A DNA stretch of 46,999 nucleotides from a virus: the UHGV virus genome UHGV-1362027; one strand, 5' to 3'. The notes below the pieces were generated by a model. It was not told where the DNA came from and made no database searches. It saw only the letters and a list, made by a program, of their open reading frames with translations. The position numbers and the translations under genes were made by a program. Shown here piece after piece: positions 1 through 46,999 of this stretch (the first letter of the stretch is position 1; each line of letters starts with the position of its first letter).

Positions 1-490
1 ACCCAGTTTGTCGCTGGGTGTACTTGCCTGACTCTGTTTGTCTTATTTCGCCATAATTGGAAGATGATTTTCCACCAGAAACACCTGTACTGGATTGAAT
101 ATTGCAATTAACCACCCCTTGCGGGTTGTATGTTGGTTGCTTTTGATAAAATACACAAATATCCTCATGATTTCTTAGTGGTTGTTTTTTTGCATTTAGC
201 ACGCCTGTTACTTTTGATTTATTCCAGACCCATTGATATTTAAAATTATCCATGTTGCTGACAACGAGAATTGACGTAAAAGGTTGTGAAGCTGTCAATA
301 CGACTGCCCCTCTGCAAACTCTATTATATTCATTCCATATTTTATCTAGCGGGATAATACTATCCCACTTGTTTTGTGTCGTTCCATAAGGCAAATCACA
401 CAAAATCAAATCAACGCTGCCTGCTGGAATAGACTTCATAACTTCCAGGCAATCACCATGAATTAACTGAACACCTTCATTTTTAATCAT
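1..490 (-). CDS. DNA N6-adenine methyltransferase (beta-class, Dam-like), N-terminal 163 codons; ORF runs off window start
   Basis: Minus-strand translation from ATG 490-488 reads MIKNEGVQLIHGDCLEVMKSIPAGSVDLILCDLPYGTTQNKWD... (DPPY-type motif IV, DLPYGT). It stays open to nt 1. The ATG overlaps the TGA of the upstream ParB-like gene (ATGA). Confidence 0.8.
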   Translation of the reverse strand, partial: MIKNEGVQLIHGDCLEVMKSIPAGSVDLILCDLPYGTTQNKWDSIIPLDKIWNEYNRVCRGAVVLTASQPFTSILVVSNMDNFKYQWVWNKSKVTGVLNAKKQPLRNHEDICVFYQKQPTYNPQGVVNCNIQSSTGVSGGKSSSNYGEIRQTESGKYTQRQTG

Positions 491-1299
491 CACATCTTCT
501 CCAGAATTGCCATAACCTCATGAATGTCAGCAACAGGAATCTGGATAAACTCCTCATCCTCTGCCACCACATGACCAGCAGGTAGAATCACGTGGTCTGC
601 TTGCTTCAATAACTCAATCAGATGGTCTACTGGCTTAATCTTTTTCGACTTGAGCACCTTCGCTGTAACTTTGCCCTTACCTTGCGCCTTCGCTTCTTCT
701 ACCGCCTCGTCGATAACTTTAACCGCATCATCGCCATGCTCACGCGTTACTGCTACGGCGTTTGCATAGCTGATTTGCCCAGCACTAATGCGTGCTTTTA
801 CTTCCGCTGGAACATCACCCAAAGACAGGTGCATCTGCACATCAGATACTGAACGACCTACCTTCTTGGCGATTTCTTCATTCGTCCAGCCAAAGCCTTT
901 CAGTCTCGTATAAGCCTTTGCGCGTTCAAACGGGTCGAGCTGCTTACCCTGACTTGATGACACCATGAAGGCGATTTTATCAGCCTCATCGCCAGTGAAG
1001 TCCTTACACTCAATGCGAACGATTGGCGCGCCACGCTCAATGGCACGCAGTGCGCCGAGATAGCGATGCTGACCATCAAGAATGCGAATTCCCTTCTCAT
1101 CAGGAATAACTGTTAATGCTGGCAGTGGCTGACCTGATTCCCAGCACTGCGCGAAATATTCCACATGCTGTTCATCTGCTTCGCGGATGTTATATCCCGG
1201 CTCCAGATAGATTTGCTCCACTGGCACGAGATATGTTTTGTTTACCGCGATGCCGTTGCGCGTCTCTTTGTCTGAATAGATTTTGCTTAGCGTTTTCAT
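490..1299 (-). CDS. ParB-like nuclease domain protein
   Basis: 269-aa ORF with a ParB/Srx-type motif ILDGQHRYLGAL in the N-terminal domain. Translationally coupled to the downstream MTase. Confidence 0.65.
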   Translation of the reverse strand: MKTLSKIYSDKETRNGIAVNKTYLVPVEQIYLEPGYNIREADEQHVEYFAQCWESGQPLPALTVIPDEKGIRILDGQHRYLGALRAIERGAPIVRIECKDFTGDEADKIAFMVSSSQGKQLDPFERAKAYTRLKGFGWTNEEIAKKVGRSVSDVQMHLSLGDVPAEVKARISAGQISYANAVAVTREHGDDAVKVIDEAVEEAKAQGKGKVTAKVLKSKKIKPVDHLIELLKQADHVILPAGHVVAEDEEFIQIPVADIHEVMAILEKM

Positions 1300-1302
1300 T
1301 GC

Positions 1303-1944
1303 TTATTCCTCATCACCTGAATTAGCAATATCGTAAAACTGACCGTAGGTTATCTGCTTAAAGTTATCAGGTATCGCTACCTGTCCATGACCTTCATCTT
1401 TTGTATTTGGCACTGCGAAAATCAGGCAATCATCCTTTTGCGGGTGTTTACCGCCATAAGTAGACAGCATTGCAAAACCAAATCCGCGACCTGATTGCTC
1501 GCCAATGCCTGTGCGCGCAATACCATAATGATTAACTATGTAGTCTTTCCATTCTGGCAATAACTTTAATTTCTCGTTTGCCTCGCGCATCACTGCATCC
1601 AGCTTTTTGTTGTATTCCCGCCCATCCTTTGTGTTTCCTTTTCCGCGAGCGATAACGACTCGTTGACCATCCCAATAATCTTCACGTTTTATTGTCACAG
1701 GGCATGGAAATTCAAACTGCTTACTCCACACAAAGCTCTCAAGTAAGCCACCGCAGACCGCGCCCCAGCTACGTGTTGTAGTGAAAGCGATAGCACCAAC
1801 CTTTTTCATGGCATCGCCGAGAATTTCATTGCGACGCTTTTGAATGTCATCATATGCGCTAATGACTTTCTTAACATCATCACCTTCAACCATGTAGTAA
1901 TCATAATGTTTTGCGTTACTGCTCATTTCCATCACCTCTAACAT
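1303..1944 (-). CDS. hypothetical protein (213 aa ORF; likely true start at Met 1926 behind GAGGTG)
   Basis: Long ORF, first gene of the minus-strand operon, just downstream of a TTGACG-17-TATAGT promoter. No recognisable motif. Confidence 0.45.
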   Translation of the reverse strand: MLEVMEMSSNAKHYDYYMVEGDDVKKVISAYDDIQKRRNEILGDAMKKVGAIAFTTTRSWGAVCGGLLESFVWSKQFEFPCPVTIKREDYWDGQRVVIARGKGNTKDGREYNKKLDAVMREANEKLKLLPEWKDYIVNHYGIARTGIGEQSGRGFGFAMLSTYGGKHPQKDDCLIFAVPNTKDEGHGQVAIPDNFKQITYGQFYDIANSGDEE

Positions 1945-1956
1945 TTATTGTTGTTT

Positions 1957-1995
1957 CTACGTCATCACTATAAACACACCATCAATCTACGTCAA
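1957..1995 (-). promoter_or_regulatory. sigma70-type promoter (minus strand) TTGACGTAGAT-N17-TATAGT, member of GTAGAT promoter family
   Basis: Minus-strand read gTTGACGtagattgatggtgtgttTATAGTgatgacgtagaaac. Inferred -35 at 1995-1990 and -10 at 1972-1967, 17-nt spacer. Lies just upstream of gene start 1944. Confidence 0.55.
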
Positions 1996-2040
1996 CAGGA
2001 ATATGCTAAAATCATGCTAATCAAACAACAGGAGATTTAA

Positions 2041-5079: not shown

Positions 5080-5126
5080 ACAATCTACACCACAAAATAA
5101 TCACTGTCAACACCTGTGATATAATC
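5080..5126 (+). promoter_or_regulatory. extended -10 promoter (TGaTATAAT) with upstream CAATCTACACCAC / TGTCAACACC motif
   Basis: caatctacaccacaaaataatcactgtcaacacctgTGaTATAATcacc, 36 nt upstream of the major tail gene. Same architecture as at 7175-7228. Confidence 0.45.
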
Positions 5127-5878: not shown

Positions 5879-5885
5879 TAAAGAA

Positions 5886-5910
5886 AAAGCCCCGAAAGGG
5901 GCTTTTTTAT
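5886..5910. terminator. bidirectional rho-independent terminator (aaagccccgaaaggggcttttttat)
   Basis: Perfect GCCCC-GAAA-GGGGC hairpin flanked by A-run and T-run. The identical hairpin recurs at 16102-16124. Confidence 0.7.
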
Positions 5911-6487: not shown

Positions 6488-6627
6488 ATCACCTTATCCT
6501 CATCAAAAATCACGCCAATCACACGAAGTAAGTCTTTCGCCATGCGTTCAGCTTCTTCATAGTCGTAACCTGCATCTACATACAAATCAGTGTAGAAAAT
6601 CAGGTCTGCTTTTGTTTGCTCGTTCAT
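6484..6627 (-). CDS. small hypothetical protein (47 aa)
   Basis: Product MNEQTKADLIFYTDLYVDAGYDYEEAERMAKDLLRVIGVIFDEDKVI. Stop overlaps the start of the downstream gene. Confidence 0.3.
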   Translation of the reverse strand: MNEQTKADLIFYTDLYVDAGYDYEEAERMAKDLLRVIGVIFDEDKVI

Positions 6628-6830
6628 TTCTTGTCGCCGCTATTAACTAATGCCCAAACAAGTGCTGCAACCCATCCAATAAAACTCCACCCTACAAGAA
6701 TATTCAGCACACAGATTGCGGTCGTATTTGTGTGCTTTCTTTGCAATGCCACAAATGACGGGAGAAGATAAGCAAATACCACCAATCCAGCGAAAAACAA
6801 CAAAATAACAACATCCATAGCCAACCTCAA
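6624..6830 (-). CDS. superinfection immunity (Imm-type) small membrane protein
   Basis: Region LLPSFVALQRKHTNTTAICVLNILVGWSFIGWVAALVWAL matches the signature of the phage superinfection-immunity family (two TM segments). Confidence 0.5.
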   Translation of the reverse strand: MRLAMDVVILLFFAGLVVFAYLLPSFVALQRKHTNTTAICVLNILVGWSFIGWVAALVWALVNSGDKK

Positions 6831-6850: not shown

Positions 6851-7144
6851 TTACATGCCGTTTTTTTCGCACAAAGCAACAGATACATCACGCAATTGCT
6901 CTTTTGTCATATCCTTGCGCGCATAAACCATTTCTACAATTGCAAGGCCGATTACTTCTGCTGATTCGTTGTTTTTTGCTGAGCCTTTCACCACCACCTC
7001 AGCAAGATTCTTGCTGACACCGTTATCTCGAACTTCAGCTGTGTTTAATGCGATGTCGCCAATGTTCTTGCACACCTCTGATGTTGCAACAGCAGAGAAA
7101 GAAGAAGCCAACAGGACAGATGCGATCAACATTTTGATTTTCAT
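6851..7144 (-). CDS. secreted/periplasmic protein with signal peptide, hypothetical
   Basis: N-terminal sequence MKIKMLIASVLLASSFSAVATSE reads as a Sec signal with an AVA cleavage site. No lipobox. Confidence 0.4.
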   Translation of the reverse strand: MKIKMLIASVLLASSFSAVATSEVCKNIGDIALNTAEVRDNGVSKNLAEVVVKGSAKNNESAEVIGLAIVEMVYARKDMTKEQLRDVSVALCEKNGM

Positions 7145-7174
7145 AACTCACCTCATTCATATCTCGTTTCGATG

Positions 7175-7228
7175 ACTTGAATCTACATCACCACCTAGCA
7201 GGTGTCAACACCACTGAGATGATATAAT
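7175..7228 (+). promoter_or_regulatory. extended -10 promoter (TGaTATAAT) with GAATCTACATCACC / TGTCAACACC motif
   Basis: ttgaatctacatcaccacctagcaggtgtcaacaccactgagaTGaTATAATcaac, upstream of the tail assembly chaperone gene. Parallels 5080-5126. Confidence 0.45.
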
Positions 7229-10307: not shown

Positions 10308-14108
<3,801 letters not shown>

Positions 14109-14147
14109 TACAATATACATCAAATTCACAAAGGAGCATTTATTATA

Positions 14148-16097
14148 ATGGCTACCACACCAACTAATAAACCAATCCCGTCAGAAGACCCGCGCGACCT
14201 GAAATTTAATGCCGGGAAGATTGACGAGGTTGTAACTGGTAACAACCACTACTATACCGATCGCTTTGGCGTGCGCCGCTGGACAATTGCTGGTTTCCAA
14301 TACACCGCAGAAGAAGCCATTCGCAAGTATGGCTACATTACGATGGACAGCTTCGAGGATGGTGCGACACTGACGCTTCCCAATCAGACACTGCGTTATG
14401 AAGCAAATGGAGAATATTATCGCTGGGATGGGGAGTTTCCAAAAATAGTTCCGGCTGGTTCAACTCCAGATAGCACAGGTGAGGTTAAATTAGGGGCATG
14501 GGTTAGTGTTGGTGATGCTTCGCTAAGAGCAAATCTTATTGATGTTAATGATCATCTAGGTGATGCACTGATAGCTATCAAACAACCGTACAACGGTTCT
14601 TTGGCGAGAACACAGCACTCTAAGAACTTGGATACTATTAGCGTTAAGGACTTTGGTGCTGCTGGTGACGGCACAACTGACGACACCGCTGCCATTCAAT
14701 ACGCGTTTGATGCCGCTCACTCTGCTGGGCGGAAATTATATTTTCCAACCGGGGTGTACCAAGTAAGTTCCACGCTTACTGCAAAATTAGGAACCCACTA
14801 TGCAGAGTATGGTTTGAGCATAGAGGGTGAAGGGCGTGGTGCATCGGTTATTCAATTTACATTCACTGATACGAATTCCCCAGTTGCGGGGATCAACCTA
14901 GTACCAGAGTCCGGCTCTACTGGTTATAACTTTGATATTAAAGGTATGACATTGAAGGGAACAACTGCTGCTGCGGTGAGTTCTCTTATCTACTGCACAA
15001 CAGATACATCAGGAATTATTCTAAATAACTTATACTTGCGAGATGCAATAACTGCATTTCACACGCCACACGATTGCTGGATTAGCGAATTTCATAACAT
15101 AAATATGTCATGTCGTGATTACGGGATTCGTATGGATGCTTCTGGTACAACAAACCGTTATGACGGTTGTTTTGTATTCGGCGCAGCGGTTAGTGCCTAT
15201 AAGCTGCGTGGTGATTACAGTACCATTGGCGCTCTTGCAGCCGATAATTGTACAGGCACTATCTACGATTTACGATTCTTCGCGGGTTCCGCTCAAAGCC
15301 TGGGGTCAGAGCAACCCAATACCGGAGTAGTCCCTGATTACATCGTTAACTGCGATGGTGGTATAGTTAATATAGACTACTTGTTAGGATTTAGATCAGC
15401 ACCAGTAGACGGCACTACTTGGTATGCGGTTAACGTTGGGGCGGGAACTGTTGATGTTAAAAACTTGATTGTAAGTTCAAATACTGGGTCAGACACTTCC
15501 GTGGCAGTTACTGGTGGTTTAATCCGTGGGTTGACAGGCCCAGTGACAGTTCAGAATATTGTGGCGGTACACAACCTCGCGTCAACAGCACCTGTTCCTC
15601 TTACATTTTCTACCCCACTTATCAGAAACTCTCCGTGGAAGATTAAATCAAAAACATCCACAGAAATTGCCGTATTTCAGGAAAGTAAGCCATATATTGG
15701 ATTTGGAGTTGCGGCGGCTGAACGGCCTAGAGACTTGGATGGCGTGCTAAGTAAGCGCAATCTTCAAGCAATATACATGGACTCTTCAGGAGCACCAAGA
15801 AACTCAGGTGTTGGGGTAAACCTGCAAACAGACCGAGATAAATATAAAGCAGCCCCCGCGCAAGGTTCATGGTTCATGGAAAATGACCCTTTATCTACAG
15901 GAAGGTCTGGTTATACTTGCTCAGCAGTCGGAATAGATATCAGTAGCAGCAGTTTTTTAGGTATTCCTGTTATAACTACTACTAAGCCAACATCTAATTT
16001 AATAGTAGGTCAGAGTTTCTTTAGCGTCGGGCATAACAAGCCGTTGTGGTGGAACGGGTCAAATTGGGTTGATGCTACCGGGGCAACCGTTGCCTAA
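14148..16097 (+). CDS. tailspike / receptor-binding depolymerase with right-handed beta-helix (pectate-lyase-like)
   Basis: 649 aa. SVKDFGAAGDGTTDDTAAIQYAF is the classic beta-helix glycosidase (Pectate_lyase_3) motif. Conserved N-terminal anchor region. Terminator follows. Confidence 0.7.
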   Translation: MATTPTNKPIPSEDPRDLKFNAGKIDEVVTGNNHYYTDRFGVRRWTIAGFQYTAEEAIRKYGYITMDSFEDGATLTLPNQTLRYEANGEYYRWDGEFPKIVPAGSTPDSTGEVKLGAWVSVGDASLRANLIDVNDHLGDALIAIKQPYNGSLARTQHSKNLDTISVKDFGAAGDGTTDDTAAIQYAFDAAHSAGRKLYFPTGVYQVSSTLTAKLGTHYAEYGLSIEGEGRGASVIQFTFTDTNSPVAGINLVPESGSTGYNFDIKGMTLKGTTAAAVSSLIYCTTDTSGIILNNLYLRDAITAFHTPHDCWISEFHNINMSCRDYGIRMDASGTTNRYDGCFVFGAAVSAYKLRGDYSTIGALAADNCTGTIYDLRFFAGSAQSLGSEQPNTGVVPDYIVNCDGGIVNIDYLLGFRSAPVDGTTWYAVNVGAGTVDVKNLIVSSNTGSDTSVAVTGGLIRGLTGPVTVQNIVAVHNLASTAPVPLTFSTPLIRNSPWKIKSKTSTEIAVFQESKPYIGFGVAAAERPRDLDGVLSKRNLQAIYMDSSGAPRNSGVGVNLQTDRDKYKAAPAQGSWFMENDPLSTGRSGYTCSAVGIDISSSSFLGIPVITTTKPTSNLIVGQSFFSVGHNKPLWWNGSNWVDATGATVA

Positions 16098-16101
16098 AAC
16101 A

Positions 16102-16124
16102 AAGCCCCGAAAGGGGCTTTTCAT
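16102..16124. terminator. bidirectional rho-independent terminator, identical hairpin to 5886-5910
   Basis: aaagccccgaaaggggctttt. Serves the plus tailspike gene and sits directly downstream of the minus-strand SSB-tail coding segment. Confidence 0.7.
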
Positions 16125-18943: not shown

Positions 18944-18958
18944 ACAAACCCCCAATTA

Positions 18959-18982
18959 AAAGCCCCGTTAAGGGGCTTTATT
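18959..18982 (-). terminator. rho-independent terminator (minus strand) after SSB-tail protein gene
   Basis: aaataaagccccttaacggggctttt on the minus strand, directly after the stop of 19001..19524. Confidence 0.55.
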
Positions 18983-20830: not shown

Positions 20831-20964
20831 AGTGTCCTCTCGATTTAACTCAGCATATCGCTGGTGTGACTTAAAGATACGTCAACGTGTTGGTAAACGC
20901 AATACCTTGACGAAAATTTTTTTTGAGTTCATTATTGCTGCATACAGATGGCAGAGGTAAACAC

Positions 20965-21207
20965 ATGAAAAGCATCGCAGAACAGATAAGAGAAATGGAA
21001 CAGACGAAGCTGTCAGAGCTGATTGATTATGTTGGAGGGCAATCACAACTGGCAAGGTTTCTTGGTGTGTCAAAACAGGCTGTCAATCAGTGGGTGTCAA
21101 GAGGAAGAATTAGCGCTACAGCAGCAATTGATGCCGAGAAACTTACTGGTGGAGTTTTCAGAAAGGAAGATTTAAGGCCAGCTGTTACAAAATGGATTAT
21201 TAAATAA
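20965..21207 (+). CDS. Cro/CI-type HTH DNA-binding protein
   Basis: Region SQLARFLGVSKQAVNQWVSRGRIS is a classic HTH_XRE motif. AGAGGT RBS. Divergent from the Sak4 operon, with TTGACG-17-CATTAT upstream. Confidence 0.5.
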   Translation: MKSIAEQIREMEQTKLSELIDYVGGQSQLARFLGVSKQAVNQWVSRGRISATAAIDAEKLTGGVFRKEDLRPAVTKWIIK

Positions 21208-24865: not shown

Positions 24866-25193
24866 TTAATTCTCCGAACAGACACTTCGCCTTCTTCCAT
24901 CTTTCTGGTTACAAAAAGCCACGAATTATCTTTCGCAACACAGCACAGGCTCGCCCTGAATTTTTCAATACTGTTATTGGCACGGAAATCATCTACCACA
25001 AAAAATCTCACCTCTCCAATCGACATCCCGCTAACAAACTCATACACCTCAGCCATTGCGCTACCAAACCTGTACATGACAACCTCCAGACAATCAATCA
25101 ACAGTAAACTCAATTTAATATATCAACTTTTCTATAATTCAGCAAGCAAGAGAAGCAACACTTAATAGCAACCTACATACTTTTCTTCCTGAG

Positions 25194-25222
25194 TTGACAC
25201 GCTTCCCGAAAAAGCGTATTAA
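25194..25222 (+). promoter_or_regulatory. near-consensus sigma70 promoter TTGACA-17-TATTAAT whose spacer is the palindromic iteron CGCTTCCCGAAAAAGCG
   Basis: gaGTTGACAcgcttcccgaaaaagcgTATTAATAttt. Confidence 0.45.
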
Positions 25223-25448
25223 TATTTCAGAGCTTAATTTTTCCTTTATCTTTCAATGGTATATAGGTAAATGAGAAAAATTCTCGGGAAGCCAATATTA
25301 AGCAAAATCAATAGTTTAGGTGTTCGCTTCCCGAGCAAAAAAAATTGATAAACAAAAAGCTCATCATAAAAAAAAGGGGTGGGTATTTTCGGGAAGCCGG
25401 GAAGCGAACGGAAAATACTGAAAACAAAAGGAATTTCGCTTCCCGATA
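25196..25448. repeat. iteron-like repeats GCTTCCCGA (at least 6 copies, both orientations) in non-coding region; candidate replication origin/regulatory region
   Basis: Direct copies at about 25201, 25326 and 25438 (TTCGCTTCCCGA). Inverted copies at about 25284 and a tandem pair at 25388-25408 (TCGGGAAGCCGGGAAGCGAA). Followed by very AT-rich DNA at 25500-25660. Confidence 0.5.
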
Positions 25449-25486
25449 ACTTGGGATTCAAAATTAACTAAATTCATTAACAAATC

Positions 25487-25509
25487 AACCAGCTTAATTG
25501 CTGGTTTTC
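25487..25509 (+). terminator. terminator-like hairpin accagc-ttaatt-gctggtttt inside the intergenic region
   Basis: Perfect 6-bp stem plus T-run, about 270 nt downstream of the 25194 promoter. Confidence 0.35.
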
Positions 25510-25672
25510 GTGTTTCTGTAGCGTAAGGTATTAATATCTATAATAAATATAAAGAAGATCTTAATATACTTTATATAGGTAATAAACAAAGGTTACTATT
25601 AGTAATTTATGCAACTATATATGTAAGCTAACGTTCACTAACATTTAGTCGTGCTTTTTCTTTCTCTGTGTG

Positions 25673-25701
25673 TTGACGTAGAATCACAACTGATGTAGAT
25701 T
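25673..25701 (+). promoter_or_regulatory. sigma70-type promoter TTGACGTAGAa-N17-TAGATT (GTAGAT family) for plus-strand early genes
   Basis: gTTGACGtagaatcacaactgatgTAGATTgaaatc, about 30 nt upstream of ATG 25732. Confidence 0.55.
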
Positions 25702-25731
25702 GAAATCATCGAAACAAACGATGGTTAAGAA

Positions 25732-26281: not shown

Positions 26282-26464
26282 ATGGCAAAAACTATCTATC
26301 GCCGCGAGAAACTGGAACCAGAACTCGGTCACGTTGGCGCGCAAAACTTTATGAGTAAGCAGGCACGTAATGCAATGGAATCTATCCGCGTAAATCGCGT
26401 TGTGCGTGTGTTTAATGGTGAAGGCAAGCGTAGAGTAATGGATGAGCTTATTATCGTGTTCTGA
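26282..26464 (+). CDS. hypothetical early protein (60 aa)
   Basis: Compact ORF. Two tiny ORFs (31-aa membrane peptide 26098-26193 and 26 aa 26198-26278) lie upstream. Confidence 0.3.
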   Translation: MAKTIYRREKLEPELGHVGAQNFMSKQARNAMESIRVNRVVRVFNGEGKRRVMDELIIVF

Positions 26465-30272: not shown

Positions 30273-30455
30273 TTATTCCGTTATTCCATAATCTGCGAGG
30301 TTAACCCTTCCCTTGTAGTGTTTTGCGGTTTCTTTCATCTTTCCCACATCTATGCCAACAATTACCTCGTGTGAGTGATTCCCATGCTGGCTTTTAAATC
30401 GCTCTATTGCCTCCTCTCTTACTTTTTTGTTAACTCTTGGTCTTGTATGACTCAT
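30273..30455 (-). CDS. hypothetical basic protein (60 aa)
   Basis: Compact ORF. Confidence 0.3.
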   Translation of the reverse strand: MSHTRPRVNKKVREEAIERFKSQHGNHSHEVIVGIDVGKMKETAKHYKGRVNLADYGITE

Positions 30456-30655
30456 GCTGGATACTCCACTTTTCCCATGACTCCATTCCGGACATACATA
30501 TCTATTTCGTCTTTTGTCATTCCCGTGTCCTCGGCATTGTCTTTGTCACGACAAACAAAAACCAGCCCATTTGCTGGCGCAAACAGATAAGTGCTGCCAG
30601 TTATTTTTGACTTGTATGCCTCAAACATCTCATCACCTCGCGTAAGTATTTCCAA
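30452..30655 (-). CDS. hypothetical protein (likely start at Met 30628 behind GAGGTG)
   Basis: Preceded by a GTAGAT-family promoter (-35 at 30692-30687, -10 TAGATT at 30669-30664). Confidence 0.35.
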   Translation of the reverse strand: MEILTRGDEMFEAYKSKITGSTYLFAPANGLVFVCRDKDNAEDTGMTKDEIDMYVRNGVMGKVEYPA

Positions 30656-30663
30656 CTGGGTTC

Positions 30664-30692
30664 AATCTACATCACAACAATATCTACGTCAA
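30664..30692 (-). promoter_or_regulatory. sigma70-type promoter (minus) TTGACGTAGAT-N17-TAGATT
   Basis: Minus-strand read gTTGACGtagatattgttgtgatgTAGATTgaa. Confidence 0.5.
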
Positions 30693-30730
30693 CATTCATT
30701 ATTGTTGTTGATAAATCAGCATCACCACAC

Positions 30731-30997
30731 TTGACCAATCTACACCGAGCGCATAGTATAATCTACATCAGGCTTACCGGAGATATCGCTATGCGCAGCT
30801 ATGCAGGATTCACACAGGAGGAAAAAGAGCAGGTTTATTCACTGGCGCGCGCTGGTGTGCCTGATGGGGTGATTTGTCGTCGGTATGATATTGACGAGGA
30901 TTTCCTGCTGCGCGTTATTGATGATGTTTTCGTTAACCTGCAGGAGAAACGCGGATATAAGGGTATCTGCTGCAAGAATGATTTTTTGAGAGGGTGA
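30731..30997 (+). CDS. small HTH-like protein
   Basis: EKEQVYSLARAGVPDGVICRRYDI resembles a transposase/terminase-type HTH. TTGACC-17-TAGTAT promoter at 30731-30759. Confidence 0.3.
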   Translation: MTNLHRAHSIIYIRLTGDIAMRSYAGFTQEEKEQVYSLARAGVPDGVICRRYDIDEDFLLRVIDDVFVNLQEKRGYKGICCKNDFLRG

Positions 30998-32295: not shown

Positions 32296-32323
32296 TGATA
32301 TAATGACCCTTACAGAAATGTGA

Positions 32324-35787: not shown

Positions 35788-36354
35788 TTAATCATCCAGT
35801 CTCACGCCGGGAATTTTACCTGCTGCGATTGCGTCGTAAATTGACAGGCAATTTCTTAATCCAGCATTGAATTTGCGATGTTCATCACTGTTGGCGTGAC
35901 GAGCCATTTCTTTTGCTGCAGCATTACGCTTCCTTTCTGCTTCAGTGCGTAGTGGTCGAATGTTCATATGCCTGTGGTAGCCGCTACCTTCTTGCTGTGA
36001 TGACTTTTGCTTCCAGACAATAAGTGAATCACCAACAAAAAGAACCTCACACTGCCCTAGTGATTTGCCGGAGAATGATATCTCACACTCACACCCAACC
36101 GGTGGCAGGCCTCCTCCGTTCCATGCAGGCTTTTGCAATGCTGCTAGTGCGGATTCGTATTGGTCCTTGCTAATTTCAATGTCATTATCTTCCACTTCAG
36201 AATCCATCTCAATGCGCCATTCTGACGGACAATCACCATTGGCATCAACGAAGTACAGCGTGGTTTTGCTGCATAAAAAACCAGCCTCCACCGCACCATC
36301 AGGCCACCCACCGCGCTTAGGTAATTCTTGAACTAACAGGTCGATAAGTTTCAT
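35788..36354 (-). CDS. hypothetical protein (188 aa)
   Basis: Long ORF, first of a minus-strand block of four coupled genes. Confidence 0.4.
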   Translation of the reverse strand: MKLIDLLVQELPKRGGWPDGAVEAGFLCSKTTLYFVDANGDCPSEWRIEMDSEVEDNDIEISKDQYESALAALQKPAWNGGGLPPVGCECEISFSGKSLGQCEVLFVGDSLIVWKQKSSQQEGSGYHRHMNIRPLRTEAERKRNAAAKEMARHANSDEHRKFNAGLRNCLSIYDAIAAGKIPGVRLDD

Positions 36355-36575
36355 TTTGTTTCCCCATCGAAAATAATTTCTTTGTATTCATCACTAACTT
36401 CATATGCTTTGTTTAGTTCGAATACCTCATATGAGTTTTGACCACCTCCGCGCCATGAATATTTGTCATTTAGCTTTGCTGCAACAGCGTCAGCTTCATG
36501 CTTGTGCGGATAAACAGCAACAACATTTGATGAAACGCCGCATTCGATACAACCAATATTAAATACCAGCCACAT
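36351..36575 (-). CDS. hypothetical protein (74 aa)
   Basis: ATGA-coupled. Confidence 0.35.
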   Translation of the reverse strand: MWLVFNIGCIECGVSSNVVAVYPHKHEADAVAAKLNDKYSWRGGGQNSYEVFELNKAYEVSDEYKEIIFDGETK

Positions 36576-36577
36576 AA

Positions 36578-36883
36578 TTATTCTCCCAGTGCCTTATTAA
36601 CCGCCGCCCGCGCATTATCCAGAGCGCGACGCTTGCTTGATGTTGTCCAGACTTTTCCAGAGTGGTCGTCGTAGATTTCCAGAAGCCGCTGGAGTGCTGC
36701 GAGCAGGTCAGGAGATGCCGCTATTAGCTTTGCGTTTGCATGTTGAGCGTTTGCATCTGTGTTGTAGCGAGTAACTCTCGCTACCGCTATATTGTCATTG
36801 CTATCCGTGACCCATTCTGGCTCGTCATCACGGTAATTCCACGGTCCACGCGTGCCTTTAAATTCTTTCATCACCAACCTCAC
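36578..36883 (-). CDS. hypothetical protein (about 97-101 aa)
   Basis: Compact ORF. A further 53-aa ORF lies at about 36880-37041 (minus). Confidence 0.35.
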   Translation of the reverse strand: MRLVMKEFKGTRGPWNYRDDEPEWVTDSNDNIAVARVTRYNTDANAQHANAKLIAASPDLLAALQRLLEIYDDHSGKVWTTSSKRRALDNARAAVNKALGE

Positions 36884-37067
36884 TTAATATATTCAATAAT
36901 CTCACACTCACGCATCTGTACCAGACCAAATGGTGCGACCACCTTGCCGCATGGACGGATTTTGATTTGCTCAAGGTCGAACACTCCGCAGTGTCCGTTT
37001 TCTTTGAATTTGACCATTACCATGATTTCTTCCTCACTCATCATTTGATGTAGATACTATGCCCCAC

Positions 37068-37102
37068 CACTCAATCTACGTCAATACCTGTTGTGATAGA
37101 AT
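37068..37102 (+). promoter_or_regulatory. lysis-cassette promoter: extended -10 TGaTAGAAT preceded by CAATCTACGTCAATACC motif; inverted GATGTAGAT copy at 37049-37057
   Basis: tgatgtagatactatgccccaccactcaatctacgtcaatacctgttgTGaTAGAATtaatca, followed by AGGAGG RBS and ATG 37129. Confidence 0.45.
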
Positions 37103-38566: not shown

Positions 38567-38908
38567 ATGTTCAAATCCGAACTTATCGTCAAGCTGAACA
38601 AAAACTCAACGTGGACGCTGATTGAGCCGCTAATCTATGAGTTTCGGCATCAGGAAATAAAAGTGCCAGCAGGATTTCGCACTGATTTTGCCAGTGTCCC
38701 GAGGCTTCCAATTTTGTTTGCTTTTATTGGCGATGTGGGTCAGAAAGCTGCAGCTATTCACGATTATTTGTATGCCACCCATTCAGACAGGCATTTCGCT
38801 GATGATTGCTTCAGGCAGGCACTGAAGGATAGCGGAGTATCATCGTTGAGGGCTGGCGTTATGTGGCTTGGCGTCAGAATGTTCGGCTGGATAAAGTTTA
38901 AGGGATGA
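38567..38908 (+). CDS. DUF1353-family protein
   Basis: 113 aa with a GFRTDFASVPR motif typical of DUF1353 proteins that accompany phage lysis genes. Confidence 0.45.
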   Translation: MFKSELIVKLNKNSTWTLIEPLIYEFRHQEIKVPAGFRTDFASVPRLPILFAFIGDVGQKAAAIHDYLYATHSDRHFADDCFRQALKDSGVSSLRAGVMWLGVRMFGWIKFKG

Positions 38909-38912
38909 AAAA

Positions 38913-38932
38913 AAGCCCCGCAATGGGGCTTG
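38913..38932 (+). terminator. rho-independent terminator
   Basis: aaaaagccccgcaatggggcttgtgtttaattt. Confidence 0.55.
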
Positions 38933-39371: not shown

Positions 39372-39865
39372 TATTTAATCTCTCCGTTCAGTTCATTAAC
39401 AATTAACGTCGCATAGCCAGCAATATCTTTCCAGCTATCATCATAGGTGGGGTCGCCATTCAGAATTCGCCCAATCTTGTGCTGAATCATGTCTAGCGCC
39501 TCGCGTTGGCTTGGCGTCAGGTTGTGCCAGCCATCCACTTCGCGCATCACATCTTTCAGCTCCTGCATGATTTCAGCACCGTCTTTGAATTTACCGTATC
39601 GACTGCCGCGCTCTGTGATGAGTTGCTCTGTTGCATCCGCTTCCGGCGCGCCAATGCAATCATTGAGATCTTGTTCGCTGGCGATTGGTTCGCGGTGAGC
39701 CATCAGAGTAAACAGGTCTTTATTAATGGTCTTTGGATTATTGGTGAACGTCACCCAACCATTTTTATTATGAACAAAGGCATGAGTATCCTCATGATGC
39801 GCGCCATCAAAATCATCAACTCCACCCATAAGCAGTTTATACCTCAATGTCATTTCTCTCTCCAC
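39371..39865 (-). CDS. hypothetical protein, possible nucleotide-metabolism/modification-associated domain (DSWKDIAGYA motif)
   Basis: 164 aa. C-terminal half ERGSRYGKF...LTPSQREALDMI.HKIGRIL.GD..YDDSWKDIAGYATL resembles small NTP-pyrophosphohydrolase-associated domains seen in phages. Weak. Confidence 0.35.
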   Translation of the reverse strand: MEREMTLRYKLLMGGVDDFDGAHHEDTHAFVHNKNGWVTFTNNPKTINKDLFTLMAHREPIASEQDLNDCIGAPEADATEQLITERGSRYGKFKDGAEIMQELKDVMREVDGWHNLTPSQREALDMIQHKIGRILNGDPTYDDSWKDIAGYATLIVNELNGEIK

Positions 39866-40074
39866 TTAATCATCTCGCGTCGCGGCATAGTGACGCGGTT
39901 ATACTCATCAACTTCAAAATTCTCCCTAATCAAATCATACATCTCATCCTTTGGCATATCAGCCAGCGCCACATAGCAACGGGCAAAGTAGCGAACATCA
40001 CGGAGTGTCAGCGGCTGCCGCTTCTCCACAATGCTGGTGATAATGTCCATCGGCTCTCGTCGTGGTCTTGGCAT
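39850..40074 (-). CDS. hypothetical protein (74 aa)
   Basis: First gene of the minus-strand block, divergent from the plus block across a GTAGAT-motif promoter region at 40100-40150. Confidence 0.35.
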   Translation of the reverse strand: MPRPRREPMDIITSIVEKRQPLTLRDVRYFARCYVALADMPKDEMYDLIRENFEVDEYNRVTMPRREMIKWREK

Positions 40075-40101: not shown

Positions 40102-40146
40102 TTGACGTTTCTACATCACTTAGTCAATACTTATTGACGTAGATTG
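40102..40146. promoter_or_regulatory. divergent promoter region with two TTGACG elements and inverted GTAGA motifs
   Basis: cTTGACGtttctacatcacttagtcaatacttaTTGACGTAGATTGtacc. Confidence 0.4.
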
Positions 40147-40581: not shown

Positions 40582-40826
40582 GCGCACCACATATGCCGAT
40601 GATGAATGAACAGGGATTCTTGAGCTGCCCATTCTGTGGCGGGAATGAAGTTTACTTGAATATTGATTTAGTGCTTGTGTCTGTCGAATGCGGAGATTGC
40701 TGTGCAAGTTCAGGTGAATGGGGTTCACCGGAAACTGCTGTCAGGCACTGGAATACCCGCAACGGACACCTCTACACCGCCGAAGACTTCAATCAGGCAG
40801 CAGAGGAGCGCGATTATGGATTATAA
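40569..40826 (+). CDS. Lar-family restriction-alleviation-like zinc-ribbon protein
   Basis: CPFCGG...CGDCC...AVRHWNTRN pattern resembles Lar-family proteins (CPFCG..., WN.R). Confidence 0.4.
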   Translation: MDKMSAPHMPMMNEQGFLSCPFCGGNEVYLNIDLVLVSVECGDCCASSGEWGSPETAVRHWNTRNGHLYTAEDFNQAAEERDYGL

Positions 40827-41304
40827 ATCACAAATCATGCGCGTGATTATGATGCATCCGGGAGCAACGCGTGCATACATTGAGAAGCACTGCGGAGGAA
40901 AGCATTCAAGCACCACAACACATCGCCTGCATGAGATGCTGGCGCTTGGCTTTATTCGCCGCGAGAAGTCAGTGATTCGCGGCGGCAAGTGGCAGTACAA
41001 ATACTTCATCTCTGATGATGCGGCAGGTATTGATGATGCAATTAAGTGCCACTTACTTGAAAACGCTGGCGCAGAGGTGAAAGAAATCAGTTTAGCCACT
41101 GGCGTTGATTATCGCATCGTGAAAAGCCGCATCCGCATTATGTTTCATAACGGCGATGTAACGCGAAGCTATGACCACCACAAGAAGCTGTGGCGTTACT
41201 CATGGCATGAACAGGAAGTAAGTGTGAGCAGCCTGTTTAATTCACTTCTTCGCAATGTAAGAGGTCATCATGGGGAAGTACAAACGCAAGAAGCAAGAGT
41301 ATGA
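40816..41304 (+). CDS. hypothetical DNA-binding-like protein (about 162 aa)
   Basis: AGGAG RBS before MDYKSQIMR. ORF listed from 40675. Confidence 0.35.
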   Translation: MDYKSQIMRVIMMHPGATRAYIEKHCGGKHSSTTTHRLHEMLALGFIRREKSVIRGGKWQYKYFISDDAAGIDDAIKCHLLENAGAEVKEISLATGVDYRIVKSRIRIMFHNGDVTRSYDHHKKLWRYSWHEQEVSVSSLFNSLLRNVRGHHGEVQTQEARV

Positions 41305-42285: not shown

Positions 42286-42622
42286 TTCCATTACTGTGGA
42301 TATTGTCAGCTTACGCATTCGCAAGGGTATTTGAGGCTGATACTCTGTACCAGATGATTTGCTATGGCGCCCTGTTCTGTCTTTCGGGTGCTGCGCTAGC
42401 ATTCATGGATGATGTGATTTCAGACTAACACCGTATATCTTTTGTTCATCATGGGCTGCTATCATTTAATCAGGAGGTAGCTCATGAACATAATCCCTAT
42501 CACTTACTTTCTCACGCTCTACGCGCTCACTGATTCGCCATTATTCGCACTGGCTACCGCCTCATGGTGCTACATCTCCCTGTGTTATAATTCGACCACA
42601 AACTAACCGTGGAGAGTTAACC

Positions 42623-45845: not shown

Positions 45846-46382
45846 CTACAGACGCATCGGCATAACAACAATCTTCGCAGTCTCGCCAGATGGCGCACTA
45901 AGACAGCAAACTGCGGCATTTGTGTTTCCATTCAGTTCAAATTTGACACCACAGAATTTAGGATTAAATAGCTTTGCTGCTTTCTCAACATCAACAAGGT
46001 AGCCAGCATTAAAGCCAATTTCCTCTGCTGCTTTAGTTTCTTTTGGTATCACGCGGTCAATATCAGGGAATCTACCATCAATCTCTTCGCAGATACCAGC
46101 ACCAACCATCTCGCCAGCCTCATCATGATACGTCGCAATTTTCGACTTGGTATCAATGATGGCGTACTCATAACGTTTTGTTGGTGACTTTCCAATCTTG
46201 ATAATCACATTTTCTGTCAGCTTGTTGTCATGACTGCCACCAATGAATGCGCGATGACCGTCAGTTGACGCAATGCGACCATCAAGCATAAAGCAGATGC
46301 CGTTCAGGTAGTAGCGCACATCATTGCGCGCCTGAAAGATTAATGCTGACTCAAGTAATAATTTACTGATTTTTAGTTTCAT
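45846..46382 (-). CDS. truncated beta sliding clamp homolog (DnaN domain II-III only, 178 aa)
   Basis: [26 protein letters not shown] aligns with E. coli DnaN [43 protein letters not shown] aligns with DGRFPDYRRVLPKN. The C-terminus VVMPMRL is identical to the DnaN C-terminus (from memory of the E. coli sequence). Confidence 0.65.
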   Translation of the reverse strand: [178 protein letters not shown]

Positions 46383-46594
46383 TCAACCACCTCGCATTCA
46401 TTTATGGAAATAAGAATAGTGTCGCCATTTCTATGGTCAAGGCATTCATATCCGATACCATAATCACAAATCACATCAAGAACATCACCTATATTAAAGC
46501 CAAACTGAGCCATGCATCCTTCATGTTCTTCATCAGAGTAATCCAGATTTGTGATTCTTACTTTCTTTGATGCCTTCATATATTCTGCCATCAC
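46379..46594 (-). CDS. hypothetical protein (71 aa)
   Basis: Compact ORF coupled to its neighbours. Confidence 0.3.
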   Translation of the reverse strand: MMAEYMKASKKVRITNLDYSDEEHEGCMAQFGFNIGDVLDVICDYGIGYECLDHRNGDTILISINECEVVE

Positions 46595-46764
46595 TTCACC
46601 TTAATCATGTGCTGTTTTGCAACTTTCAGGCATTCTTCAAAAATGCCACCCTTCTTTGCGCTCTGATTGCGCTTGTAATACTGGATTGCCGCTTCAATTG
46701 CCATCTGGTCTATGTCAGGTAGCTTGGCTCGCAGCTGTTTTTCGATGAATTGTTCGGCGTTCAT
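46595..46764 (-). CDS. hypothetical protein (about 58 aa)
   Basis: Product [60 protein letters not shown] overlaps the MTase stop. Confidence 0.3.
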
Positions 46765-46999
46765 CCTAAAATCCTTTTTTTGGCTATTTCAAAATATTTA
46801 TCATCTTTTTCGATTCCGATAAACCTGCGCCCTGTATTCACGCAGGCAACGCCGGTGGTTCCGCTGCCCATGCAGTTATCCATGACTGTGTCGCCTTCAT
46901 TGGTGTACGTCTTGATCAGGTATTCCATCAGCGCGACTGGTTTTTGTGTTGGATGTACAGTCTTACCCTCTGATGCAATTGACAAAACAGACCTTGGAT
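46761..46999 (-). CDS. DNA N6-adenine methyltransferase (beta-class), C-terminal part; ORF runs off window end
   Basis: ...[47 protein letters not shown].. (TQKP motif and FxGxG-type AdoMet motif I). Reading frame stays open to nt 46999. Confidence 0.8.

Follow-up and report, generated by a model that had tools for sequence, protein, structure and literature searches.

What does a short sequence that recurs in the intergenic DNA of virus genome UHGV-1362027, in both orientations and repeatedly on top of promoters, do for the phage? The window analysed, the whole stretch of 46,999 base pairs (bp), is essentially an entire siphophage genome. It shares ~90% nucleotide identity with Shigella phage Sf11 (Cedarrivervirus) and E. 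coli phage Sa179lw; Salmonella phages Skate, Akira and Vi II-E1 are further kin, and the next clade out is a Klebsiella subgroup that includes ZCKP8 (80% identity in the major capsid protein). The recurrent element is the 11-mer TG[A/G][C/T]GTAGATT (TGAYGTAGATT), which is asymmetric and not self-complementary. We put at about even the chance that it is the operator of a phage-encoded regulator shutting off early and accessory promoters together. It would lie within the core of some ten strong sigma-70 promoters, which serve small-gene and accessory operons and a tRNA unit.

The 11-mer and its place in promoters

A sequence-only reading of the window had described an intergenic motif recurring in both orientations, and the counts bear this out. 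With at most one mismatch, AATCTACRTCA has 15 matches against 1.88 expected, a number reached by 0 of 100 shuffles. A weight matrix trained on 13 sites finds 18 matches at a threshold of at least 11 bits (13 strong, about five weak), and 18 of 18 lie in non-coding DNA, which by our own gene map makes up 9.9% of the window. The 13 strong copies are spread over eight junctions, nine on the minus strand and four on the plus strand. An unbiased count of 7- to 9-mers returned three word families alone as enriched in non-coding DNA (terminator stems, the 11-mer motif and a GCTTCCCGA box), and a repeat finder ranked the motif-bearing modules (D1 and I4) as the top direct-repeat family of the window. 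The core GTAGAT that had been proposed for the family is by itself weakly enriched (25 vs. 15 expected); the signal lies in the full 11-mer, which is therefore the unit used here. The partial copy proposed at about 20876-20885 (TGACGTATCTT) differs from the motif at two positions and does not reach 9 bits; it was set aside as just a -35-like TTGACG. Separately, a weaker motif-like site (TGATGTATATT, 15.6 bits) lies at 14112-14122 on the minus strand, within the 39 nucleotides (nt) that separate a pair of tail genes on the plus strand; Sf11, Sa179lw and Skate have it at the corresponding position, and no promoter to pair it with is obvious.

The left half of the motif approximates a -35 element (tTGAC) and the right half a -10 element (TAGATT), so that one copy can supply either hexamer, and two copies 17 nt apart make up a complete predicted promoter with a putative binding site on both hexamers. 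The motif serves as -35 (tTGACG) at 1984(-), 25674(+), 30681(-) and 37073(-), where a -10 follows exactly 17 nt on (TATAGT, TAGATT, TAGATT and CATAGT, respectively), and as -10 (TAGATT) at 5082(-), 7180(-), 25691(+) and 30664(-), where TTGAC[A/G] stands exactly 17 nt upstream. The earlier reading of this geometry at 1995-1967(-) (TTGACG/TATAGT), 30692-30664(-) and 25673-25701(+) (both TTGACG/TAGATT) is thus correct, as is its placing of the motif in the divergent region 40102-40146, which contains three copies. Other copies lie at the predicted transcription start (+1) at 1954(-) and 40135(+), in the spacer at 40108 (serving both H(-) and H(+)) and at 30737 (inverted with respect to F(+), the promoter of gene 30791), or inverted across -10/+1 at 37046 and 30760. 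Start-to-start spacings between copies are 17, 23, 27, 30 and 33 nt, with no helical phasing. Such varied positions, in both orientations, suit a protein operator better than a sigma-70 element, and favour the suggestion that a factor besides sigma-70 recognizes the motif.

The promoters themselves, lettered A to H by junction, are near-consensus. TTGACG/A/C/T is found at A, B, C, E, F(-), F(+), G, H(+) and H(-), and TAGATT, TATAGT or TAGTAT follows at 17 nt in A, B, C, E, F(-) and F(+); the -10s of G (CATAGT), H(+) (AATACT, 18 nt) and H(-) (CAAGAT) are weaker. We compiled 178-181 unique contexts of 55-71 nt, taken from the window together with 39 related loci; in these, offsets of -18 and -1 from the motif are the only peaks for -35-like hexamers, and +5 and +22 the only ones for -10-like hexamers, an apparent invariance inflated by the choice of contexts by matrix and the retrieval of most loci through the tandem pattern. 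A generic promoter scan showed no overall enrichment (27 vs. 32 expected) and therefore does not by itself validate any promoter. Other good promoters, for example at 20907 and 27950, lack the motif, as do those of the replication operons and the Cro-like gene in the window; the motif therefore marks a subset of promoters, not all. All of its sites fall in a gap, either a strand switch or other non-coding DNA, with a start codon following after 40-90 nt or with the tRNA unit downstream. The copies and their promoters are the following.

1984..1994, minus strand: TGACGTAGATT, with T1995 the -35 (TTGACG) of promoter A(-); -10 TATAGT at 1972-1967, 17-nt spacer
1954..1964, minus strand: TGACGTAGAAA, beginning 2 nt past the A(-) -10, in the predicted +1 region
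5082..5092, minus strand: TGGTGTAGATT, with TAGATT 5087-5082 the -10 of promoter B(-); -35 TTGACA at 5110-5105, 17 nt apart
7180..7190, minus strand: TGATGTAGATT, with TAGATT 7185-7180 the -10 of promoter C(-); -35 TTGACA at 7208-7203, 17 nt apart
25674..25701, plus strand: tandem pair at a 17-nt offset, TGACGTAGAAT at the -35 (TTGACG 25673-25678) and TGATGTAGATT at the -10 (TAGATT 25696-25701) of promoter E(+)
30664..30691, minus strand: tandem pair at a 17-nt offset, TGACGTAGATA at the -35 (TTGACG 30692-30687) and TGATGTAGATT at the -10 (TAGATT 30669-30664) of promoter F(-)
30714-30724: weak copy within the densest motif cluster (five copies, 30664-30770)
30737-30747 and 30760-30770, minus strand: CGGTGTAGATT and TGATGTAGATT, inverted relative to promoter F(+), in its spacer and just past its -10
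30731-30736 (TTGACC), 17 nt, 30754-30759 (TAGTAT), plus strand: promoter F(+), driving the gene 30791..30997 for a protein of 68 amino acids (aa)
37073..37083, minus strand: TGACGTAGATT, giving the -35 (TTGACG 37084-37079) of promoter G(-); -10 CATAGT at 37061-37056, 17-nt spacer
37046..37056, plus strand: TGATGTAGATA, inverted relative to G(-), over its -10 and +1, 27 nt start-to-start from the 37073 copy
40108..40118, minus strand: TGATGTAGAAA, in the spacer of H(-) and, inverted, also in that of H(+)
40127-40122 (TTGACT), 17 nt, 40104-40099 (CAAGAT): promoter H(-)
40102-40107 (TTGACG), 18 nt, 40126-40131 (AATACT): promoter H(+)
40135..40145, plus strand: TGACGTAGATT, beginning 3 nt past the H(+) -10, in the predicted +1 region

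Conservation of the motif and the genes behind it

Absence of the motif from the homologous intergenic regions of relatives had been named as grounds for abandoning the family. The motif is present in all four relatives compared, with 15 sites of at least 12 bits in Sf11, 13 in Sa179lw, 15 in Skate and 11 in ZCKP8, at equivalent junctions and, by the annotation of the records, all in non-coding DNA save one weak ZCKP8 match. In five-genome alignments the 11-mer forms an invariant island amid variable spacers. Over nine orthologous sites in the window and ZCKP8, 91 of 99 motif positions are identical (92%), against 248 of 450 positions in the 25-nt flanks (55%). The dinucleotides AC, AT and GT at motif positions 3-4 interchange freely among -35, -10 and +1 copies; changes remain within the consensus regardless of promoter position, and ZCKP8 has TGACG at one -10 copy. 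The 1984 copy is invariant in the four relatives, and the 1954 copy is kept in Sf11, Sa179lw and ZCKP8, with one change in Skate. ZCKP8 also keeps the 40108 arrangement at the H junction; there, the copy corresponding to 40135 is TGGTGTAGATT (TGGTG), in which the motif persists and the -35-like TTGAC is gone. Beyond these genomes, the tandem-pair pattern was found in 35 stretches of IMG/VR viral contigs (33 of 44-49 kb, the others 21 and 38 kb) and had no match in 185,579 representative bacterial genomes. The hosts of the motif-bearing phages are all Enterobacteriaceae. The group appears virulent, since neither an integrase nor CI was found and no representative bacterial genome scanned carries the tandem pair.

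Gene blocks switch strand alternately across the window: on the plus strand are the genes for structure and lysis, with some small-gene runs, and on the minus strand those for replication, with several short operons whose genes are small and mostly unknown. Predicted promoter A(-) drives 1303..1944 and the ParB-like gene 490..1299, in a unit that runs from a variable first gene through the ParB-like gene to RusA. C(-) drives 6851..7144, the Imm-like gene 6624..6818 and later genes, an operon with an Imm-like superinfection protein. The small-gene runs from 25732 (promoter E(+)), 30791 and 40173 are likewise motif-driven and include Lar-like and MarR-like proteins, as are the short minus-strand operons at 30628 (30452..30628, behind F(-)), 37023 (36880..37023 and downstream genes, behind G(-)) and 40074. 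Several genes of the motif-driven minus-strand operons, first genes such as 1303..1944 and 30452..30628 among them (also 30273..30455 and 36351..36575), have no counterpart in Sf11, Sa179lw, Skate or ZCKP8, and in Sa179lw an anti-restriction gene occupies the first slot. Because first genes lack counterparts in relatives, the conserved promoters drive variable cargo, and the variable slots behind them are likely to hold host-takeover or anti-defence genes. The minus-strand gene 46379..46591 is also listed among those without a counterpart in the four relatives.

Promoter B(-) reads toward tRNA-Met (4635-4559), in a unit otherwise poor in open reading frames (ORFs) that ends in the tRNA and a terminator. 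Past this promoter, a leader of ~55 nt (5075-5020, minus strand; CAGATAGTTTTCGTGAGCGACTTTGC...TTTTTAGAAACTGACCACAAAGATAAAT) is nearly unchanged in ZCKP8 despite diverged surroundings and is replaced in Skate. It opens an ORF-poor predicted transcript of ~440 nt ending in tRNA-Met, which may be a non-coding RNA; no Rfam match was found for the leader unit, the tRNA being the sole Rfam match over the window. Right after the motif, at 7166-7179 (-) and 25702-25715 (+), promoters C and E have in common a conserved stretch (xAAxTCATCGAAAC) at the start of the predicted transcript. This stretch is also kept in relatives, and is either part of a longer operator there or a common 5′ leader element.

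Two further features concern the layout of the window. Near-identical bidirectional terminator hairpins (AAAGCCCCGAAAGGGGCTTT) at 5881-5906, 16096-16121, 18954-18979 and 38907-38932 mark convergent operon junctions. An ORF at 46761-46985 (-) matches only the internal or C-terminal part of DNA methyltransferases and ends within 15 nt of the window edge; this methyltransferase-like gene is probably cut by the window boundary.

Probable late promoters and competing explanations

A second class of the family had been described in front of plus-strand late genes. The sequences given for 5080-5126, 7175-7228 and 37068-37102 are correct, and their extended -10 elements are real, but they belong to an independent plus-strand late class of seven copies, three of which (11527, 32296 and 42583) have no motif nearby. 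The motif itself does not read into the late genes at two of these places: at 5082 and 7180 it is the -10 of a minus-strand promoter, and the TGTCAACACC ascribed to the second class is the reverse complement of the minus-strand -35 (TTGACA) at B and C. The pattern TGNTADAAT occurs 11 times in the window, 10 of them on the plus strand, and seven copies are non-coding; these seven stand just upstream of head-tail, major tail, tail, portal, lysis and capsid-module genes.

2004..2012, plus strand: extended -10 TGcTAAAAT without a -35, ahead of 2043.. (head-tail genes), back-to-back with A(-)
5117-5125, 7220-7228, 11527-11535, 32296-32304, 37094-37102 and 42583-42591, plus strand: the other extended -10 copies

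By sequence, the extended -10 elements TGnTAnAAT without a -35 probably constitute a late promoter class, and all seven late promoters can be defined without the motif. The motif's own -10 is not of the extended type: in TGATGTAGATT the nearest TG abuts TAGATT, at -14/-13. At junctions A, B, C and G, a motif promoter (-) and a late promoter (+) stand back-to-back with predicted start sites 57-62 bp apart, so that by their coordinates the two polymerase footprints would overlap; the extended -10s of these four divergent junctions are also found in ZCKP8. Because the spacing between the two varies, we discarded the idea that the motif stands at a set distance upstream as part of the late promoters.

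The operator reading is preferred because the site is asymmetric, overlaps near-consensus promoter cores either way round, usually comes in two copies and is conserved as a unit. Repression is favoured because the motif positions are those of occlusion. The analysis shows directly that the motif is enriched, where it stands relative to good -35 and -10 hexamers, that the clade conserves it and which kinds of gene follow; we infer start sites, protein binding, the sign and timing of regulation and the identity of the factor from the DNA. Unmodified host RNA polymerase would fire the motif promoters early; an early product would build up and occupy operators at the -35, spacer, -10 or +1, and this occupancy would shut the whole promoter set off together. 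At the four back-to-back junctions, shut-off would also free a late promoter lacking a -35 from competition.

A number of observations weigh against this account. The sequence does not determine the sign of regulation. Some copies share longer stretches (7166-7190 vs. 25691-25715, 25 nt at 92%, I4; a 44-nt module, D1, common to 5082, 7180 and 30664), and part of the resemblance between copies is therefore common descent of promoter cassettes. The context set described above overstates invariance by the way it was picked. A search of the published literature found no start-site, footprint or expression data for this phage group, and a full-text search for the motif returned unrelated primer sequences only. 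None of the candidate proteins considered below can be tied to the motif; all those remaining are clade-core genes, among which phyletic co-occurrence does not discriminate, and two of the candidates each have a feature that fits poorly with recognition of a conserved site: an acidic and hydrophobic third helix without a basic recognition helix in all homologues of the 68-aa protein, and a first recognition helix that has diverged between the window and ZCKP8, where the motif has not, in the winged-helix protein of 40816..41304.

The opposite sign of control would have a phage protein resembling T4 MotA or phi29 p4, either an activator or a sigma-appropriation factor, bind the motif to serve a middle class of promoters, the adjacent late promoters or both. 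In -35 copies the 11-mer does span about -36 to -25, centred at about -30, and at A and G the inverted motif sits exactly at the would-be -35 of the late extended -10 promoter, with 23 and 24 nt from the motif start to the start of the late -10 hexamer (by our reading, the alignment gives 22 and 23 nt for ZCKP8). The late promoters, moreover, have no -35, like phi29 A3 (PMC2731898). Yet the motif promoters already own a consensus -35 and a 17-nt spacer, and so do not need an activator. Copies at +1, in spacers and over the -10 are placed as those of a repressor would be, the motif and the late -10, where close, are not a constant distance apart (23, 24, 38 and 43 nt), and 3/7 late promoters have no motif. 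We regard positive control as unlikely.

An equally unlikely explanation dispenses with an extra factor altogether. Paralogous promoter cassettes would have spread by duplication or recombination with mobile accessory modules, and the shared bases would reflect descent or optimisation of promoter strength. The D1 and I4 modules, the TCATCGAAAC common downstream of promoters C and E and the high variability of downstream genes among relatives all accord with such spread. It does not explain why the 11-mer has been kept while flanks and spacers diverged (the 92% vs. 55% above), why it stands at differing promoter positions in both orientations, or why it persists where its hexamer role has been lost, as at H(+) in ZCKP8. 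Moreover, the GTAGA beside the -35 and the TGRYG upstream of the -10 have no known sigma-70 role, and the TG is one base off the extended -10 register.

A host transcription factor common to Escherichia, Salmonella, Shigella and Klebsiella would suit the enterobacterial hosts of all motif phages and is very improbable, the tandem pair being absent from the representative bacterial genomes and the motif fitting by inspection, to our knowledge, no consensus of DnaA (TTWTNCACA), IHF, NarL, OmpR, CRP, FNR, LexA or Fur.

The operator reading extends, more doubtfully, to a whole group of phages. The Sf11, Skate, Vi II-E1 and ZCKP8 group, a clade with over 200 sequenced virulent siphophages of enterobacteria, might use the 11-bp element both as either sigma-70 hexamer and as the operator of a possibly monomeric regulator without a recognizable family. 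Tandem copies would then be self-contained switchable promoters, and their interlock with late promoters lacking a -35 (57-62 bp) a minimal, activator-free early-to-late switch by promoter competition. We hold this combined proposal only tentatively, as distinctly less probable than the operator reading itself. A promoter-embedded operator regulon is a conventional kind of phage element, previously undescribed for this group: our literature search found no published description of gene regulation in the group, and no promoter description in the literature on Sf11, Skatevirus, Cedarrivervirus, 9NA and the Vi phages. For a large group of phages of Salmonella, E. coli, Shigella and Klebsiella that is under development for biocontrol, it defines a regulon that can be tested, in which early/accessory and late promoters can be separated by sequence alone. 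Once the factor is found, it would also provide a short portable promoter-plus-operator module for phage engineering.

Candidate regulators and known systems

Which protein might bind the motif? The probabilities expressed here are a rough split of our own. The best-annotated candidate is the product of 40816..41304 (+), a MarR-like winged-helix protein of 162 aa (isoelectric point 9.5) encoded in the motif-controlled operon H(+). Its N-terminal domain alone is modelled confidently, with matches to MarR-like folds, and PHROGs assigns it to 'transcription regulation'; a second putative recognition helix is better kept between the window and ZCKP8 than the first. It is a possible factor, though probably not the right one. 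The chance that the factor lies instead among other small basic clade-core proteins, such as those of 26282..26464 or 39850..40074, is somewhat smaller.

Two helix-turn-helix (HTH) candidates had been put forward by the sequence-only reading. The first, the Cro/YdaS-like protein of 20965..21207 (Pfam E = 6e-18), is rejected as unlikely: it is missing from Skate and ZCKP8, both of which keep the motif. The second, given as 30731..30997, adjoins the densest motif cluster, and two copies cover its own promoter. The start ATG 30791, rather than TTG 30731, agrees with homologues and yields a 68-aa protein, for which AlphaFold2 predicts a confident three-helix bundle (pLDDT, the model's own confidence score, 81). 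The acidic third helix makes it a doubtful DNA binder. Foldseek comparison of the model with HTH domains gave non-significant matches throughout (E > 0.2), and a profile search of 1.8 billion proteins returned 16 representatives with no link to a known family; the protein is restricted to this phage clade. That it is the factor seems improbable.

We think no better of the ParB-like protein of 490..1299, of the chromosomal Spo0J/Noc/KorB type, and disfavour it as the factor. Proteins of this type bind palindromes, and the asymmetric motif does not resemble the 13-16 bp palindromes of parS/OB sites; the GCTTCCCGA boxes match such a binder better. At 25190-25450 (boxes 25201-25446), within a 654-nt non-coding gap (25078-25731), GCTTCCCGA is present five times without change and once in a nearly identical form. 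These boxes are iteron-like, occur in both orientations in AT-rich DNA and adjoin the primase/polymerase operon, and one copy sits in the spacer of a good promoter (TTGACA 25195-25200, 17 nt, TATTAA). They may mark a replication origin or be the target of the ParB/Noc-like protein. They also fit an origin better than the motif does, whose copies are distributed over eight junctions instead of forming one cluster.

Among known systems, lambdoid Cro/CI operators at PR, PRM and PL occur as several neighbouring copies on top of the -35/-10 of strong early promoters, where divergent promoters also overlap. The motif shares all of these traits: its sites lie on the hexamers of strong, putatively early promoters, in adjacent copies and at overlapping divergent promoters. 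Unlike the lambdoid operators, which are dimer-bound 17-bp near-palindromes at two loci, the sites here are asymmetric and spread over eight junctions, and the window's Cro-like protein is not conserved alongside them. T4 middle promoters combine a MotA box at about -30 with a host-type -10, and the -35-class copies are alike in having a phage-specific box at about -30 with such a -10. Here, however, a consensus -35 is retained at every -35-class copy, so the box does not replace it, and further copies stand at -10, at +1 or inverted.

In phi29, the early promoter A2b and the late promoter A3 are divergent and close together, with regulator sites in the shared region, and A3 lacks a typical -35 and depends on p4 (PMC2731898). 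The interlocked junctions of the window resemble this early-late pair. They differ in that the late promoters carry an extended -10 and some stand alone, that the motif lies on, not upstream of, the early core promoter, and that the host is Gram-negative; no p4 homologue is known here.

The C1 operators of phage P1 sit at promoters in either orientation and overlap promoter hexamers. Twenty-two such asymmetric operators, with the 17-bp consensus ATTGCTCTAATAAATTT, are dispersed over the P1 genome (PMC8546580). A non-palindromic site in many dispersed copies is also what the window presents, with 13 strong copies at eight junctions. The 11-bp motif is unrelated to the P1 site in sequence; it belongs by sequence to neither the P1 nor the phi29 system, and a regulator homologous to that of either was not identified. 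No C1 annotation appeared among 10 window proteins compared with Pfam or further ones compared with PHROGs only, a comparison made by annotation and with no C1 sequence. The purpose here would be temporal shut-off, not lysogenic immunity. With these differences, the motif system would, by analogy, work most like that of P1 C1.

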